Positions 10,801 through 37,957 of a stretch of DNA of 64,000 bases are shown in pieces. Within the stretch, counting starts at the first letter, position 1; each line of letters starts with the position of its first letter. A program made the position numbers and the translations under genes. The notes under the pieces were generated by a model, which was not told the origin of the DNA, did not search any database, and saw only the letters and a list, made by a program, of their open reading frames with translations. Source of the DNA: Prorocentrum cordatum (Eukaryota); NCBI GenBank assembly GCA_963575745.1, contig CAUYUJ010000114.1, positions 682,001 to 746,000 of the forward strand, in the 5' to 3' direction.

Positions 10801-11993
10801 CCCTTAAGAAGACCTTGCGCCAGAGCCCAAACGTCCCCTATTCTTGGCCGCTGCGCAAGTCATGGACATCAGCTATGCCAGATCGGGTCCGAGGCTGTGC
10901 GCAGTCTGCACGCCGGTCATCTCCGAAGGCGCCGTTGTGCTGACTTGCCCATGCGGCCACATCGCGCGCCCCGGTCCCAGGTCGACCATTGCGTCTCTTG
11001 CGCCATATTCGACGCCTTGCTCTGGTGAGCATGCTTCTCGCCGCGCCGTTTGTTCCGACGCGCGGCCTTACGTCTTGAGAAGTGCGCCTCGGGCACCGGG
11101 GCAAACTCCCCCATTGCCGCCCACGCCTCGCCCCGCCCCGCCGCCAGGAGGAGCCGCCCGCCTCCCAGCCGCCCGCCAAGCGCCGCGCGCTCGCGGCCGC
11201 GGCGCCGGAGGCGCCGGCGACCGACATCGACTGAGAGGCGGGGCCGCGCCGGGCCAGCACGGCGGGGGCGGGGCGCGGTGCTCTCGGGGGGGTGTCAGGC
11301 AGTGGCGAAGCGTCCTGTGGCGTGCCTATAGCCCTACCAGGCAAGGTTTTTAGAACCTCTTGTGGCTTCCACGACATGTTCTCAGAGCATTTCTGGCGGA
11401 GTCTGGCTTGTTGTATCACATCGGGATTCTGTTCTAAGAACTCTGTTTTCGTTCTTCGGAAATTCTGGGGTTCTAAGAACCTTTCGTGGTAGGACTATAG
11501 GAATGCCGGGACGGTCGGTCCCTGCTCAAGGGTGGGCGCCGCTTCCTCGGCGGAGGGGAAGCGGGGCGACTCCACCGGCGGAGGCCGCGGGAGCCGAGGC
11601 TGACCACCCCCCCCGGGCGAGGCGAGGGCGAGCGGTGCTCTCGGCAAGAGCGCCCTCGAGGGCGCGAAGTTGTTCGCGCTTCGCGGTTCGGCTCCGATCC
11701 CTCCTCATCCTCTTCTCCCCTGGGAGGCGCGGCGCGAGAGCGCGAAGTTATTCGCACTTCGCGCCTCGCGCAGCGCGAGGCGCGAAGTTGGGAGCCCTTG
11801 TCTCGGAGGTGGTTGGCGGGGGGCCGCAGACGGTGGGCGGGCCCGCGAGCCGTGGGCTCGCCGTGGCGCCGGCAGGTCTTCGGGGCAGTGGGGCCGGAGG
11901 TGTCCCTGCGGCGTTCGGCCTGGAGGCACGGAGCCCTGTGCAGGCCCTGGGGCAGTCACGGAAGCAGCTCTGGATGTATGATGCTCCAACCTA

Positions 11994-12022
11994 ATCCAGA
12001 AGCCGCATTAAAGTGATCATTT
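11994..12022 (+). repeat. Left terminal inverted repeat ATCCAGAAGCCGCATTAAAGTGATCATTT
   Basis: Exact reverse complement of 36055-36083. Confidence 0.95.
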
Positions 12023-12134
12023 CCCCCCTCTGTGACAGAGGGGGTGTTTTTCGGACCCCCTCTGTGACAGAGGGGGTGCGTTCGGAGGCCCTCTGTGACA
12101 GAGGGGGTGCGTTCGGAGGCTCTCTGCGACAGAG
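12023..12134. repeat. Left subterminal array of the palindrome CCCCTCTGT-G-ACAGAGGGG (3 good copies, 1 degenerate)
   Basis: Centres at 12034, 12066, 12097 and 12128 (period 31-32 bp). Confidence 0.9.
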
Positions 12135-12558
12135 TTGCTCGTCATCCCGTTCCTCCTCATCCTGCTTCTTGATTTCGGATATGTCATGCTACCACTGCGC
12201 TCATCATCTTTGCGTCTGTGATCCTCGTCGTGTTGTTCCATGCGTCCTTTTCACAATTTCCACCACATTATCCTCCGTTGCCGTTCTGGCCCGCCATCTA
12301 CCTCGTCACTCTCCTTCGTCTGCATGTCCTTATTCTTTTCCGCTCTTTTTTCGCCTCCCTCTGGTTCGATTTCCGCTCTTCGTCCACTTCGTTCATTCGT
12401 TTCCAACCCCCCTTCCTTTCAAGTTCTCCGCCGTCCAATCACGTCGCGTCGTCCGCCGCCGCTATGCTCAAACCACCCCGCGCCCGTGGGATCGCCCGCG
12501 AGCACCGGTGCAGCTGGGCCCGTCGCGGCCTAACGCGCGCCTGCGCCATCGTCTTGCA

Positions 12559-13704
12559 ATGGGCGATGCAGGCGGATACACATGGGATGGCGCGGGAGGA
12601 TGGTGGGATAGCCGCAGCAGCGGCTGGCGTGGCTGGGAGGACGGCCATGATTGGTCAGCGAGGGGTTGGAGAGACTGGCGACAAGACGGGCACACGCCAA
12701 CGGAGGACGCCAAATGGCGCGATGGCCCTGCCGCCGCAGCAGCGGCGGCGGTCTCGTCTCAACGGCCGTCTCGCTTCGCCGCGCTTAGCGTTGTGAGCCC
12801 CCGCGCCCCTGGTCTCGGCAAGCCCGAATTCGATAATTTCGTGAGGGCTGCCCTCCGAAACGTACCAGAACTTGGGAACACAGTTTCAGGAGAGGGGTCG
12901 GGATCCCGAGCCGCGCCTGCGGCGCAGGAGCCCCGCGCCACCGCAGCGGCGGCGGCGCGCGGGCCCCAGGATTTCGAGAAGTTTGATGTTAATTATTTTT
13001 TGAGTTATGAAGAGAGGCTCGGCACTTCGTTTAAGCAACACAATCAAGCGTTGAAATGGTGGCGCCATCTGAATGAAGACCCAACTGCCCCGTTCGAGTC
13101 AGAAGCCAAGTGGTTTGACAATGCGAAGCCCACCATGGTCGCTGTTTGCGACCACGGTGCGAGGACGAGCTTTGGTTTCAAAAGCGACGAGGAAGTCCCT
13201 TGGCGGTGGCAAGAGATGGTGGCGACGCTCTGGGAGGAAGATATCAGGGAGGTCGTGGAGGGGCCCCGCAGCAGCGGGGCTCTGATCGGCTGTCCCCTCG
13301 AAGTCCGGCCAAACAGCTACGACCACATGCGTCAGAGTATTGTGCGCGCGCGACAGTTCGCGGGGCAGCGGGTGAAAGTGAAGCTGCCGATGTGGGATTT
13401 CGTGTTGCACCGCGACGACGGGACAGGCGTCCGTTTACACCCGCACTGGGGCGACAGGAAGGTCGAAGCTCTGCCCCTCGTCCCCCGCGCGGACACGGCG
13501 AGGCCACCAACCGCGGGTTTGGGCGGGAGCGACGGGTCAGGAACTTTTCGCTGGTACAAGGACCTCGGTGTGGAGCGTAAGGTCAAGCTCGACGCCGCCA
13601 GAGAGAAGGGGAGGCCGACGCCCTCTCAGGGACCCCGCAGCAGCGGGGCCGCGGCGTCCAGCACCAGGCCCTCGGCGTCCGCAGCAGCGGGTGGCAAACA
13701 GTAG
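12559..13704 (+). CDS. Transposon cargo ORF1, hypothetical protein (~381 aa; W/G/R-rich N-terminus plus globular domain)
   Basis: ATG at 12559 after a pyrimidine-rich leader. Complex protein-like core (QHNQALKWWR...WRWQEMVA...WDFVLHRDDGTGVRLHPHW). No family recognised. Confidence 0.7.
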   Translation: MGDAGGYTWDGAGGWWDSRSSGWRGWEDGHDWSARGWRDWRQDGHTPTEDAKWRDGPAAAAAAAVSSQRPSRFAALSVVSPRAPGLGKPEFDNFVRAALRNVPELGNTVSGEGSGSRAAPAAQEPRATAAAAARGPQDFEKFDVNYFLSYEERLGTSFKQHNQALKWWRHLNEDPTAPFESEAKWFDNAKPTMVAVCDHGARTSFGFKSDEEVPWRWQEMVATLWEEDIREVVEGPRSSGALIGCPLEVRPNSYDHMRQSIVRARQFAGQRVKVKLPMWDFVLHRDDGTGVRLHPHWGDRKVEALPLVPRADTARPPTAGLGGSDGSGTFRWYKDLGVERKVKLDAAREKGRPTPSQGPRSSGAAASSTRPSASAAAGGKQ

Positions 13705-35749: not shown

Positions 35750-35959
35750 GCGGCGGCGACTCGCGCGCGCCGTCGTGCTCGGCGACCGCTGCCCGAGCGG
35801 AGAAGGAAAAAGAATCGGTGCTTTCATCGGTGCTGTCGTTGCCTCCTCTCCTTCATCGTTTTCTTCTCCCTCCCCCTCCAATCCCCCATCCCGCTATCAC
35901 ATTTTATCGTCTCCAATCGTATCGGGAGCTCCCGTGGCAGAAGAGCACCCAGAACGAGG

Positions 35960-36044
35960 TCCTCCGTGACAGAGGGGGGGCATCTCAGACCCCCTCTGTG
36001 ACAGAGGGGGGGCATCTTAGACCCCCTCTGTGACAGAGGGGGGG
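35960..36044. repeat. Right subterminal palindrome array (3 copies)
   Basis: Centres at 35968, 36000 and 36032 (period 32 bp). Confidence 0.9.
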
Positions 36045-36054
36045 CCAAAAAAAC

Positions 36055-36083
36055 AAATGATCACTTTAATGCGGCTTCTGGAT
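36055..36083 (-). repeat. Right terminal inverted repeat
   Basis: AAATGATCACTTTAATGCGGCTTCTGGAT, followed by TA. Confidence 0.95.
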
Positions 36084-37957
36084 TATCCTTCGCCTTGATC
36101 ACCAGAAAGAAGTTCGAGCGCCCAGAAAAAGTACCGAAACTCAAGGGCTTTCACGTGTCGGGCCCTGGGAGACGCTCGCCCGACACGGTTTCGACACTCT
36201 TTGGGCCCTTTTCCGGGTGCTCGAAATTTTTTTTGGGATGTGGTCCTTAAGTAAGATGGGAACAACAATTCTGGATGAATGGGGGAGGCCCCGGGGTCCA
36301 GGCCCCGCTTCCCTCAGGGCCTGCTTGTTGGCCAAAGCCACGCGCGGCCCACACGTTTGTGTAGAGCCATTGCTTATTTTCTGCGGTTTAAAAAAAAAGG
36401 ACCCATCTATCCAGCTCCCTGGCAAGTCCCGCCACCATGCCAGCCCAAGGTGTTGGGTTTCGACCCTTCGACAGGGCACGGGTGCCTGTCATGTGCACCG
36501 CCCATTTGAACAGATTTTGGGGTCCTCTTGCGGGGTTCCTTGGGCTGTCTGTCAAGGTGCTGTGACCCGTTGGATTTTGTGACCAGTTGCGTTTAGTTGG
36601 CGTCAGTGACAGTGGCTTGCCCTGAGCTCTTGAGAGGTCGTCTCGGGATTCCCTCCGCTCCTTCTTCGGCCTTTTTGAGGCTCTCTTGGGCTATCTCGGG
36701 CTCTCTTGGGGCCTTCGTGACCGTTTTGGGAGCGTCGTTGGGTTACCATGGGGCCGTCTTGGGCCGTCCAGGGATCTCTTAGGCCGTCTTGGGTCCCTCC
36801 TGCGGGCCTTTAGGGTCAACTTGAAGCCCTCTTGAGACCGTCCTGGGCTGTCCAGGGGCCGTCTTGAGCTGCCTGAAGGCCGTTTTGGAGACCCCTTGGG
36901 CTATCTTGAGGTTCCCTTTGGTCGTCGTGGGGCCACCTTGGAGGCATCTTGGGTCGTCTTGAGCCGACGGGAGCTTGAAAAGGCGAGGATGGGAATACAT
37001 TCCAAGACAATGCAAATCTAAGATGTTGGCCTTTTCGGGCCTTTTTGGAAGCTCTCGTAGAACACTCTTTGCCCGTCTTGGAGGCCTCTGGTGCCGCCCC
37101 GAGGCCATCTTGGGCCATTTGGGAGCCATCTTCGGCCGTCTTGGAGGCATCTTCGGCCTCTTTGAAGCTGCGGAGTTCCGTCTTGGAAGCCATCTTGGGC
37201 ATATTGGACGCCTTGGAGGGCGCCAGGAACGTGTCTGGGCGACGACAGAGCCTCTGGAAGGGGGGGCGGTGCACGCAACTCTACGTGCCCTTTAGGAGCT
37301 CACAGACACCCTGCCAGACAGTACTTGGCATTCTAGCGCGCCTCGACGTGCCAGGGGGCACGGGGGCGGATCGTTGTCCTCATTCTATTATATCATATGC
37401 ATGGGCAGCCGGCAATTCTGACGTCGGAGTTCGGGGACACGGGGCTGGAGTAGAGGGGGTCGGAGGATGGCGCTGCATCCACGAAGCGGCTCGATCTGGA
37501 GTCCGACTATCGCCATGCCGACGTCACCGATGCATCGCCGATGCACCGGCGACGCATCGGCGGTGCGGCGCGATCCGTCGGTATGGTATGTTCGACTCCA
37601 GGACACGCAGCAGATTGTCCTGGGGCGCAAGGCTACCCTCAGGATAGGGGCCTGTAGCTCTGGGGGCCGCGGCTCGGAGCAGCAACACAGGAGCGACGCC
37701 AACAACACGGGGTCGTCTGCGCCGGCATCGGCGCGCAGGCTGCCCGCGTGAGCTCGCGCGTAAGCACCCGCAGGCTTCCGACAGAGCGTGCCGCGCTGGC
37801 TGCCCGCGCAAGCTGCGGCGCAGGCCACCAACCCGCCAACCCACCAAACCACCCCCACCCCAACCCGAAGGCCTCGAGTTGCCCTTCATTTCCAGTGGGG
37901 GGGGGTTCGGGGAACATGGACAAAGCACAGATGGAACCCTTACCCCCCCCAACCCGA

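Follow-up and report, generated by a model that had tools for sequence, protein, structure and literature searches.

The 64,000-nt stretch of the Prorocentrum cordatum genome analyzed here (contig CAUYUJ010000114.1 of assembly GCA_963575745.1, positions 682,001 to 746,000; hereafter the window) contains a unit bounded by two perfect 29-bp terminal inverted repeats (TIRs), ATCCAGAAGCCGCATTAAAGTGATCATTT, that measures 24,090 bp from outer TIR base to outer TIR base. A preliminary description of this DNA had reported such TIRs 24.1 kb apart with TA on either side, and we located both arms as the sole two matches to the 29-mer in the 64-kb window, with none elsewhere at up to 3 mismatches and 0.00 matches in 100 shuffles. 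The junctions read ccaaccTA on the left and TAtccttc on the right; because TA is a palindrome, one copy fits a TA duplication and the outermost 2 bp of a 31-bp TIR alike. A paralogous empty site was not found in the 64-kb window, and no similarity was detected between the interior of the unit and the remaining window. Tandem repeats lie just inside both TIRs and carry the palindrome CCTCTGTGACAGAGG, which recurs in a third array in the middle of the unit. Its 11 sites in the window (three at the left end, five in the middle, and three at the right end) are the only ones, with 0.01 expected.

Seven long open reading frames (ORFs) lie within the unit (11995-13704, 16366-19116, 20852-23344, 24386-25402, 27078-29219, 29220-32405, and 32516-34399), and every long ORF there is on the + strand. 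The earlier claim of at least five further long co-oriented ORFs beside a transposase thus stood, and the ORFs were fairly called intron-poor, although at least one intron (29193-29366) is present. In addition, 56 stem-loops are dispersed through the unit on the + strand only, with none outside the TIRs (Table 1). The palindrome arrays, the element-specific hairpin motif, and the sharp boundary tie the whole 24 kb together and support one large TIR-bounded element, far bigger than the usual Tc1/mariner/pogo elements. Recent activity, also proposed earlier, is plausible, given the identical TIRs, the open ORFs, and a public protein 99% identical to residues 150-720 of the transposase ORF.

Table 1. 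Coordinates of the element's features in the window and of the corresponding genes in two related metagenome loci
Feature	Coordinates	Strand	Remarks
Left TA	11992..11993	.	outside the TIR; candidate target-site duplication
Left TIR	11994..12022	+	29 bp, perfect; ATCCAGAAGCCGCATTAAAGTGATCATTT
Left subterminal repeats	12026..12134	+	31-bp unit x3.5; palindrome CCTCTGTGACAGAGG in each
Gene A	12559..13704	+	start inferred (first Met before conserved part); C-terminal ~170 aa conserved
Dispersed stem-loops, 56	12607..35732	+ only	NNNCCGC-AGCA/AGTA-GCGGN'N'N'; none outside the TIRs
Rearranged stretch	13700..16600	+	13700-14700 duplicated at 15554-16600, 87-97% identity
Gene B	16513..19116	+	start inferred; conserved core, basic/Pro-rich tail; 5 public homologs
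Gene C	20852..23344	+	830 aa; belongs to a very large family without annotation
Internal array	23899..24088	.	41-bp unit x4.6, between genes C and D; same palindrome as subterminal repeats
Gene D	24446..25402	+	upstream of the protease-transposase gene in 8 loci
Tandem duplicate of 24312-26150	26175..28024	+	84-93% identity; about 1.86 kb; partial second gene D 26309-26800
Protease-transposase gene	27732..32405	+	
Cysteine-protease domain	28650-29198	+	invariant Cys codon 29121-29123
Intron	29193-29366	+	174 nt; GA..AG borders
RNase H-like DDE/D catalytic core	30396..31289	+	model residues 244-541
Gene G	33035..34399	+	start inferred; candidate endonuclease/exonuclease/phosphatase-like
ORFs of 234 and 207 aa	34400..35749	+	candidate genes only; no relative in 80 loci
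Right subterminal repeats	35961..36045	+	32-bp unit x2.7; palindrome CCTCTGTGACAGAGG
Right TIR	36055..36083	-	29 bp, perfect; ATCCAGAAGCCGCATTAAAGTGATCATTT
Right TA	36084..36085	.	outside the TIR
L041 (13.6 kb): C, D, protease, DDE, G	1673-3898, 4980-5717, 7355-7783, 8227-9876, 11668-12450	+	
L013: C, D, protease, DDE, G	5-2044, 2968-3783, 4934-5407, 5903-7462, 9245-9619	+	

The ORF at 29220-32405 has at least 80 public relatives, with identities of 35-99%. In an alignment of 35 sequences, a catalytic triad consisting of D287, D416/D417, and D452 of the aligned core (codons 30525, 30912-30917, and 31020) was invariant or at least 90% conserved. The first Asp is invariant in the motif NWDQSPF, while the Asp-Asp of MADD and the Asp of QTxDT are nearly invariant. 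About 129 residues separate the first two Asp residues, and 34 or 35 lie between the second and the third, in agreement with the DD35D transposase reported earlier. A structural model of the core (mean predicted local distance difference test score [pLDDT], 79; most 10-residue core blocks above 85) had Mos1 mariner (E 5.9e-5), SETMAR, and Sleeping Beauty as its top Foldseek matches. VIA-align likewise placed it nearest SETMAR (3f2k_A; Z 14.2, root mean square deviation 3.2, 190/197 residues), Mos1 (Z 14.0), and Sleeping Beauty (Z 12.1), with retroviral integrases at Z 11.8 or less. The predicted fold, the triad, the TIRs, and the TA support placement of the transposase in the IS630-Tc1-mariner superfamily, with no Pfam transposase model matching. 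By kind, the element is a probable DDE/D cut-and-paste transposon. Of the narrower assignment to pogo made in the preliminary description, the superfamily fold was borne out, and a Tc5-type helix-turn-helix (HTH) domain (HTH_Tnp_Tc5) was found in 3/35 relatives (best E 2.8e-4; not in the window copy), but DDE_1 did not match, and placement within pogo is weak.

The transposase is preceded by a protease domain. The product comprises, in order, an N-terminal Cys/His-rich part, a low-complexity linker, a cysteine-protease domain, the site of the intron, the HTH/DDE part, and a coiled-coil tail. In the public protein P0004 (1480 aa, 67% identical over the part searched), the domain with the DGDCG motif runs unbroken into the transposase. 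A scan of metagenome contigs confirmed 113 related loci, of which 80 were kept, and all locus counts given here refer to these 80. The protease domain lies upstream of or is fused with the DDE part in 55/80 loci according to tblastn and in 58/80 according to a profile hidden Markov model built from these sequences. To judge from these sequences, the protease domain and the transposase are one gene.

The nature of the protease domain was approached through its alignment and a structural model (pLDDT 87). In the alignment, a conserved His119 precedes the invariant Cys158 of DGDCG by 39 residues; the usual OTU order is catalytic Cys before His. The best VIA-align match of the model was an OTU deubiquitinase of Escherichia albertii, with a weak Z of 5.3 over 86 aligned residues. 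NopD (4.8), the SdeA deubiquitinase (4.5), Ulp1 (4.3), and NEDP1 (4.2) followed, all of them weak, and together with ChlaDUB, XopD, the adenovirus protease, and several SENPs they occupied the range of Z 3.5-4.8. Canonical OTUs reached Z 2.1-2.9. Most of the top 30 fold matches were of the Ulp1/SENP/adenain type, which we take to be clan CE, and these matches were weak, with none above Z 5.3; the best Foldseek match was Ulp1, at E 0.45. The domain therefore has, on weak matches, a predicted fold of the ubiquitin-like-specific cysteine-protease kind, of OTU or Ulp1 type. The preliminary description had named an OTU-like product among those of the element: a cysteine-isopeptidase fold is retained, but the domain is fused to the transposase, its His precedes its Cys, and its weak matches are mostly Ulp1/SENP/adenain-type. 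Upstream of this domain, the N-terminal Cys/His-rich stretch (27732-28100) is 57% identical to residues 7-80 of P0004 over 75 residues and matched no family; it is a candidate nucleic-acid-binding module.

An intron separates the two parts of the gene. Around it (window 29185-29370), the same 8 bases (GCCAGGAC, then A) stand at both junctions, its length is a multiple of three, and the public gene model P0002 of a relative reads straight through it. Direct repeats flanking an intron on either side are the expected trace of an "introner" insertion. Introns with GC/GA-AG borders and trans-spliced multi-gene transcripts are described for dinoflagellates in the available part of a genomics review (PMC11453091). 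The GA..AG borders, together with a G+C content of 62%, suggest a GC-rich protist as host, probably a dinoflagellate.

The genes that accompany the transposase recur beside its distant relatives. In L041 and L013, whose transposases are 43-45% identical to that of the window, genes C and D, the protease, the DDE part, and gene G follow one another in the window order (Table 1). With a profile of its own, gene G was found downstream of the transposase in 10 loci, including L055. On the upstream side, gene D is present in 8 loci, and L055, L060, and L075 have an A-like gene. Gene B was in none of the 80 loci. At the other extreme, L076 and L077 are 5.8-kb elements with terminal inverted repeats of about 90-100 bp and a single protease-DDE ORF. 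The preliminary description had regarded the additional genes as a cargo cassette. Because order and orientation recur beside distant transposase relatives, we instead read the accompanying genes as core genes of the family and not as captured host genes. Two related loci showed repeats of their own. L065, a 5.1-kb contig with one protease-DDE ORF, has a 14-nt repeat (GCTTAGGCACCTAG) at 33-260 and 5073-5115, near both ends; it could represent a small element in full length or else an assembly of circular or tandem DNA. In L001, an 83%-identical relative, a 13-nt tandem repeat with GCGATCGGCG is present 22 times at 55-680, upstream of a D-like gene, where the window has other sequence.

Database searches contributed little to the identity of these genes. 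Pfam returned only a few sub-threshold chance matches for 12 ORFs of the element and 16 ORFs of related loci, and scans of the element proteins against PHROGs and NCBIfam gave chance-level rows only. Profiles of the transposase, gene C, the protease domain, gene G, and gene D retrieved nothing useful from PDB sequences (for the transposase, no transposase was matched), and gene A had 0 phmmer matches there. The family of gene C numbers 2,124 cluster representatives at a cutoff of E<=1e-3, of which 383 remain at E<=1e-30. The ParB/SET-like identity proposed earlier was not upheld for it: Pfam ParBc was found in 0/48 family members scanned, as was any other Pfam domain; profiles of 13 and of 48 sequences gave 0 matches in the PDB; its N terminus had no tblastn match among plasmids at E<=10; the protein Atlas yielded no usable match; and comparison of its profile with P1 ParB by hhalign gave a probability of 0.08%, with a single sequence as template and hence low sensitivity. 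Gene G keeps the motifs GNWG, AEA, VHxH, GDFN, and DSCG, which we take to be typical of the endonuclease/exonuclease/phosphatase (EEP) fold. In the Atlas, its best cluster scores 0.91 and has PF03372 assigned to 20% of members, and 21 of the 30 clusters nearest to gene G have the same family set as this one. The EEP product of the preliminary description was thus recovered in its motifs and in part of its Atlas clusters, but not in Pfam (no match at E<=0.1) or in PDB profile searches, and an EEP-like function of gene G is put forward as a lead.

Duplication has also shaped the element. Apart from the duplicate of gene D, no paralogy was detected among the element proteins. The rearranged stretch at 13700-16600 (Table 1) contains, besides its internal duplication, fragments of gene C at 15174-15506.

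The hairpins are strictly polarized. In the window, 51 of the 56 have the loop AGCA and 5 have AGTA, and the 11-mer CGCAGCAGCGG (12613 to 35717) occurs 49 times on the + strand, never on the - strand, and never outside the element. Stem cells were paired in 88.9% of cases compared with 79.6% in shuffled sets (0/500 reached the observed value), and the covariation score was 0.323 versus 0.152, with slid partners giving 0.13 or less. U-G pairs are common on the + strand (16 at one position, for example), and few of the corresponding A-C combinations are seen. Most related loci have this hairpin, with a different loop, as their most frequent 10-mer, and in every case it lies on the strand that encodes the transposase. 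Across the 80 loci, sense and reverse-complement copies numbered 437 versus 1 for the loop AGTC, 221 versus 2 for AGTT, 126 versus 2 for GGTG, 62 versus 1 for AGTG, and 49 versus 0 for AGTA.

The same organization extended to the most distant clade (L055, L059, L060, and L064), where 80 hairpins were found on the sense strand and 0 on the other. Their stems vary around a fixed apex, A-GC-TGTN-GC. Since 18 hairpins of L059 and L064 resemble copies of the L060 element, they were left out of the covariation set, and the remaining 62 of the 80 were 83.1% paired versus 62.0% when shuffled (0/500), with a covariation score of 0.542 versus 0.157 and slid partners at 0.12 or less; at three stem positions, every one of the four Watson-Crick pairs occurs. 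A core common to the whole family, GC-NGYN-GC, is kept down to 35% transposase identity. Among closer relatives, positions can be compared directly. Between the window and L001, 12 hairpins are co-positioned in the alignment, 6 are window-only, and 2 are L001-only, and stem changes are compensatory (for example, GCCGCC/GGCGGC to GCCACC/GGTGGC). At one site of the gene C alignment, the window lineage has PAAAEA where others have SAVADL or PAVAGL, which indicates that the position of the hairpin is kept and the loop is lineage-specific.

Hairpins are found both after and within genes. A loosely defined hairpin follows within 30 nt of 38% of 117 long-ORF stops, a set that includes some overlapping spurious frames, compared with 9% of random points. 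In the window, stems start 1, 6, 9, 18, and 25 nt past the stops of gene C, gene G, the transposase, gene B, and gene D, respectively. The 759 hairpins located in ORFs of at least 400 aa fall into three phases: 522 encode Ala-Val-Ala or Ala-Ala-Ala, 173 encode Arg-Ser-Arg-Gly, and 64 are in the third phase. A search against Rfam returned 61 rows at E<=1, none at the gathering score and nothing resembling the hairpins; nearly all rows were microRNA-precursor models, which fell for the most part on the palindrome arrays and a small number of other stretches. In L048, about 40 hairpins with the AGTC loop lie head to tail at 6472-7237 with 15-30-nt spacing, inside ORFs, indicating that the hairpin is capable of amplifying as a tandem array.

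The internal palindrome array also has counterparts in related loci. In the window, the orientation of the central base of its unit flips after the third copy. Between genes C and D, L013 has an array of 41 bp x4.8 whose palindrome is GTCTGTCACAGAC, L041 has one of 43 bp x2.4 with an interrupted palindrome at the same place, and in L055 palindromic repeats lie near both ends. We infer that one DNA-binding protein may be shared by the element ends and the internal array.

Several further features were noted in the window. A 384-aa ORF on the - strand at 58674-59825 gave a sub-threshold match to Phage_integrase, the tyrosine recombinase family (E 0.0095; Pfam, 12 flank ORFs), and may be the remnant of a tyrosine-recombinase element; in the 56-58-kb bin beside it, G+C falls to 47%. 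Short-repeat arrays at 5552-5707 and 6996-7186 form inverted arms of 130-148 nt that are 90-95% complementary and about 1.3 kb apart. With a similar inverted pair at 51148-51296 and 51797-51945, they may mark other TIR elements. The most frequent 11-mers in the window, with up to 86 copies, come from a tandem repeat with units like TTAGCTTTAGC and TTAGCTTAGC; they are confined to one strand and are not among the motifs of the element.

Taken as a whole, the unit probably represents a single copy from a large family of DNA transposons with multiple genes, and this is the best overall explanation of the locus. We propose with fair confidence that the transposase would bind the TIRs and the subterminal palindromes and that the whole unit would move by cut-and-paste into TA. 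With low confidence, the internal 41-bp array might be bound by the same protein or by the gene C product and aid end pairing or regulation, and the protease might process the fusion protein or strip ubiquitin-like modifiers. The genes would be read as long sense transcripts in which the hairpins serve as RNA recognition marks for an element-encoded or host factor, most likely defining or protecting mRNA 3' ends within the multi-gene transcript, and the concerted shift of the loop letters in each lineage would reflect coevolution of the hairpin and its binding factor. Marks in a long sense RNA, chiefly at 3' ends, are our tentative choice for the hairpins, held with low confidence. A bolder version, which we consider doubtful, is that the hairpins form a self-"barcode" in the sense strand, placed through coding sequence and after each gene, whose lineage-specific loop coevolves with a reader in the protease-transposase protein and which would mark transcripts or a single-stranded DNA (ssDNA) form as "self" for processing, protection, export, or packaging.

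Several results weigh against this account. The window transposase has no Pfam match at E<=0.1 and no PHROGs or NCBIfam match, and DDE_1, DDE_3, and Transposase_1 were found in 0/35 relatives at E<=1. No fold is assigned to genes A, B, C, D, and G, five of the seven, and replication or virion functions are possible for them. As for the hairpins, 759 of 1,084 (70%) lie in ORFs of at least 400 aa, which equals the ORF share of bases (71%), so that most are not at 3' ends, and a 3'-end role alone leaves many in-ORF hairpins unexplained. The single-gene relatives L076 and L077 bear 21 hairpins each; accessory genes are therefore not required for whatever reads the hairpins, and any element-encoded reader would reside in the protease-transposase protein, with a host factor as the alternative. 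The hairpin data fit RNA and ssDNA alike. Folded as RNA, the window hairpins gave -15.0 kcal/mol on the + strand and -14.0 kcal/mol on the - strand (p=0.035), a small difference, and strand stability was for that reason rejected as a discriminator between RNA and ssDNA. Because folding energies barely differ by strand, the polarity resides in the loop letters.

Three other explanations were considered. The two TIRs might come from separate small elements or match by chance, with an ordinary unidirectional host array between them. Long co-oriented gene arrays are common in dinoflagellates, according to the accessible portion of a review (PMC11453091), and the middle palindrome array could be read as the abutting ends of two elements. 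However, no copy of the TIR lies at the middle array, the 29-mer being confined to the two termini, and hairpins flank that array on both sides, spanning 12.6-35.7 kb, stopping at the TIRs, and being absent from the other 40 kb of the window. Moreover, the array sits between the same two genes in L013 and L041, gene order is kept around distant transposase relatives, and the interior is unlike the rest of the window. The reach of the hairpins and the conserved gene order argue for one element rather than two, and the possibility that the TIRs belong to two small elements, raised already in the preliminary description, did not hold. We regard it as largely refuted and extremely improbable. A different proposal accepts the unit but has the hairpins act in ssDNA, as priming or orienting signals of a virus- or plasmid-like element whose + strand would undergo displacement or packaging while extrachromosomal. 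The strict strand polarity along the whole length would suit such a phase, DNA energy parameters make the + strand the more stable in 45/56 window hairpins, the repeated palindrome array beside gene C recalls plasmid centromeres such as sopC/parS, and the five genes without a known fold leave room for it. Yet no polymerase, helicase, primase, capsid, or packaging ATPase was recognized in the element with Pfam, PHROGs, or NCBIfam, a search of a viral contig collection found nothing related to the transposase, the polarity is accounted for just as well by transcription because all genes are on the hairpin strand, and clustering after stop codons suits RNA and not DNA replication. We give this proposal a low probability.

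The hairpins could also be tiny selfish insertions that spread within the elements and are tolerated mostly where they encode Ala-Val-Ala or Ala-Ala-Ala. Rickettsia palindromic elements and mitochondrial GC clusters are insertions of this kind. Many hairpins lie in variable, low-complexity protein linkers, a 21-nt indel between the window and L001 takes in one hairpin entirely (alignment column 3431), and both the predominance of the Ala-Val-Ala/Ala-Ala-Ala phase (522/759) and the array of about 40 closely spaced copies in L048 speak for this origin. Set against this, positions are kept between relatives, and some hairpins coincide with protein columns that are themselves conserved (consensus LAVAG and AVAxV), orientation is as biased as 437 to 1 with no copy outside the element in the window, enrichment directly follows stops, compensatory changes maintain the stems, and the same core persists down to 35% transposase identity. 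Selfish spreading is accordingly an improbable origin in our view, and recognition marks in sense RNA remain the reading that we prefer.

A multi-gene Tc1/mariner-like family with a fused protease or dispersed sense-strand hairpins was not described in the literature covered by full-text searches, whose scope lay outside subscription journals and Repbase. The words "mariner," "Tc1," and "pogo" occur 0 times in the available part of a review of giant transposons (PMC6431247), as does "hairpin" in that of the dinoflagellate genomics review (PMC11453091). Here, an enzyme fold of the Tc1/mariner type occurs in a family whose members have up to seven genes, fixed as a set and co-oriented. Current family libraries miss these genes, although marine and freshwater metagenomes are rich in relatives (113 confirmed loci in one scan; 2,124 cluster representatives for gene C). 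This suggests that a large body of protist "dark matter," so far without annotation, is part of mobile elements. What could turn out to be categorically new is the hairpin system. As a structured cis-element whose copies change in concert along the entire element, the sense-strand hairpins offer a clean case for testing; their reader could reveal how transposons are expressed in hosts with polycistronic transcription and trans-splicing, and they could yield a compact hairpin-protein recognition pair. If the barcode were true, it would amount to a cis-code of a type that no DNA transposon is known to have, and the family would establish a new class among the complex mobile elements of aquatic protists.

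Individual parts of the element resemble known systems. The internal array recalls sopC of the F plasmid with SopB and the enhancer of phage Mu, in that palindrome units of about 41-43 bp lie beside a large conserved gene and the palindrome also occurs at the ends; it differs from sopC in that gene C has no detectable relationship to ParB and binding to the array is putative. Single-stranded RNA viruses have packaging-signal stem-loops dispersed through their coding sequence, in which the loop motif is common to all and the stems vary. Hairpins of the L055/L060 type share these properties, but no capsid or RNA-replication gene was recognized in the element, which is bounded by DNA TIRs. The nearest precedent for hairpins at 3' ends is the "hairpin rule" of the Mimiviridae, where post-gene hairpin palindromes mark mRNA 3' ends that are cleaved and polyadenylated there, as stated in the available part of the report (PMC4402537). 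The enrichment within 30 nt after stops is similar here. In contrast, the apex in this family is sequence- and lineage-specific, 70% of copies lie in ORFs, the hairpins are carried by a transposon integrated in a cellular genome rather than by a cytoplasmic virus, and no RNase III or poly(A) polymerase gene was recognized in the element.

The pairing of a protease with a transposition enzyme also has parallels. Ulp1 proteases are carried by some plant MULE and CACTA elements. An OTU protease is encoded with the transposition enzyme in Ginger1 (PMC2836005) and in Helentrons (PMC6431247), as far as the accessible parts of these sources go, and a cysteine-isopeptidase-type domain takes that place here. 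Those elements belong to other transposase superfamilies (integrase-like, Rep/Hel, and MULE), whereas in this family the protease lies upstream of a mariner-fold DDE domain in at least 55/80 relatives. In size, the element is like the giant transposons (Starships, Teratorn, and Polintons/Mavericks), which span tens of kilobases and have many genes and discrete ends, as set out in the available portion of the review (PMC6431247). It differs from them in having a mariner-fold DDE/D enzyme instead of a tyrosine recombinase, piggyBac, or an integrase, and a conserved family core instead of variable cargo or a virus module. No polymerase, capsid, or packaging ATPase of the Polinton/Maverick kind was recognized with Pfam, PHROGs, or NCBIfam, with genes A, B, C, and D lacking an assigned fold.

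Tc1/mariner elements are the textbook minimal mobile element, with one gene between two short repeats. The Prorocentrum element has in common with Tc1/mariner/pogo the TA-flanked TIRs, an RNase H-like core nearest SETMAR, Mos1, and Sleeping Beauty, and the 34-35-residue spacing of the last two Asp residues. It departs from them in spanning 24 kb with at least seven genes, compared with 1-3 kb and one gene, in the cysteine protease fused to a transposase with long N- and C-terminal extensions, and in its subterminal and internal palindrome arrays and dispersed sense-strand hairpins.

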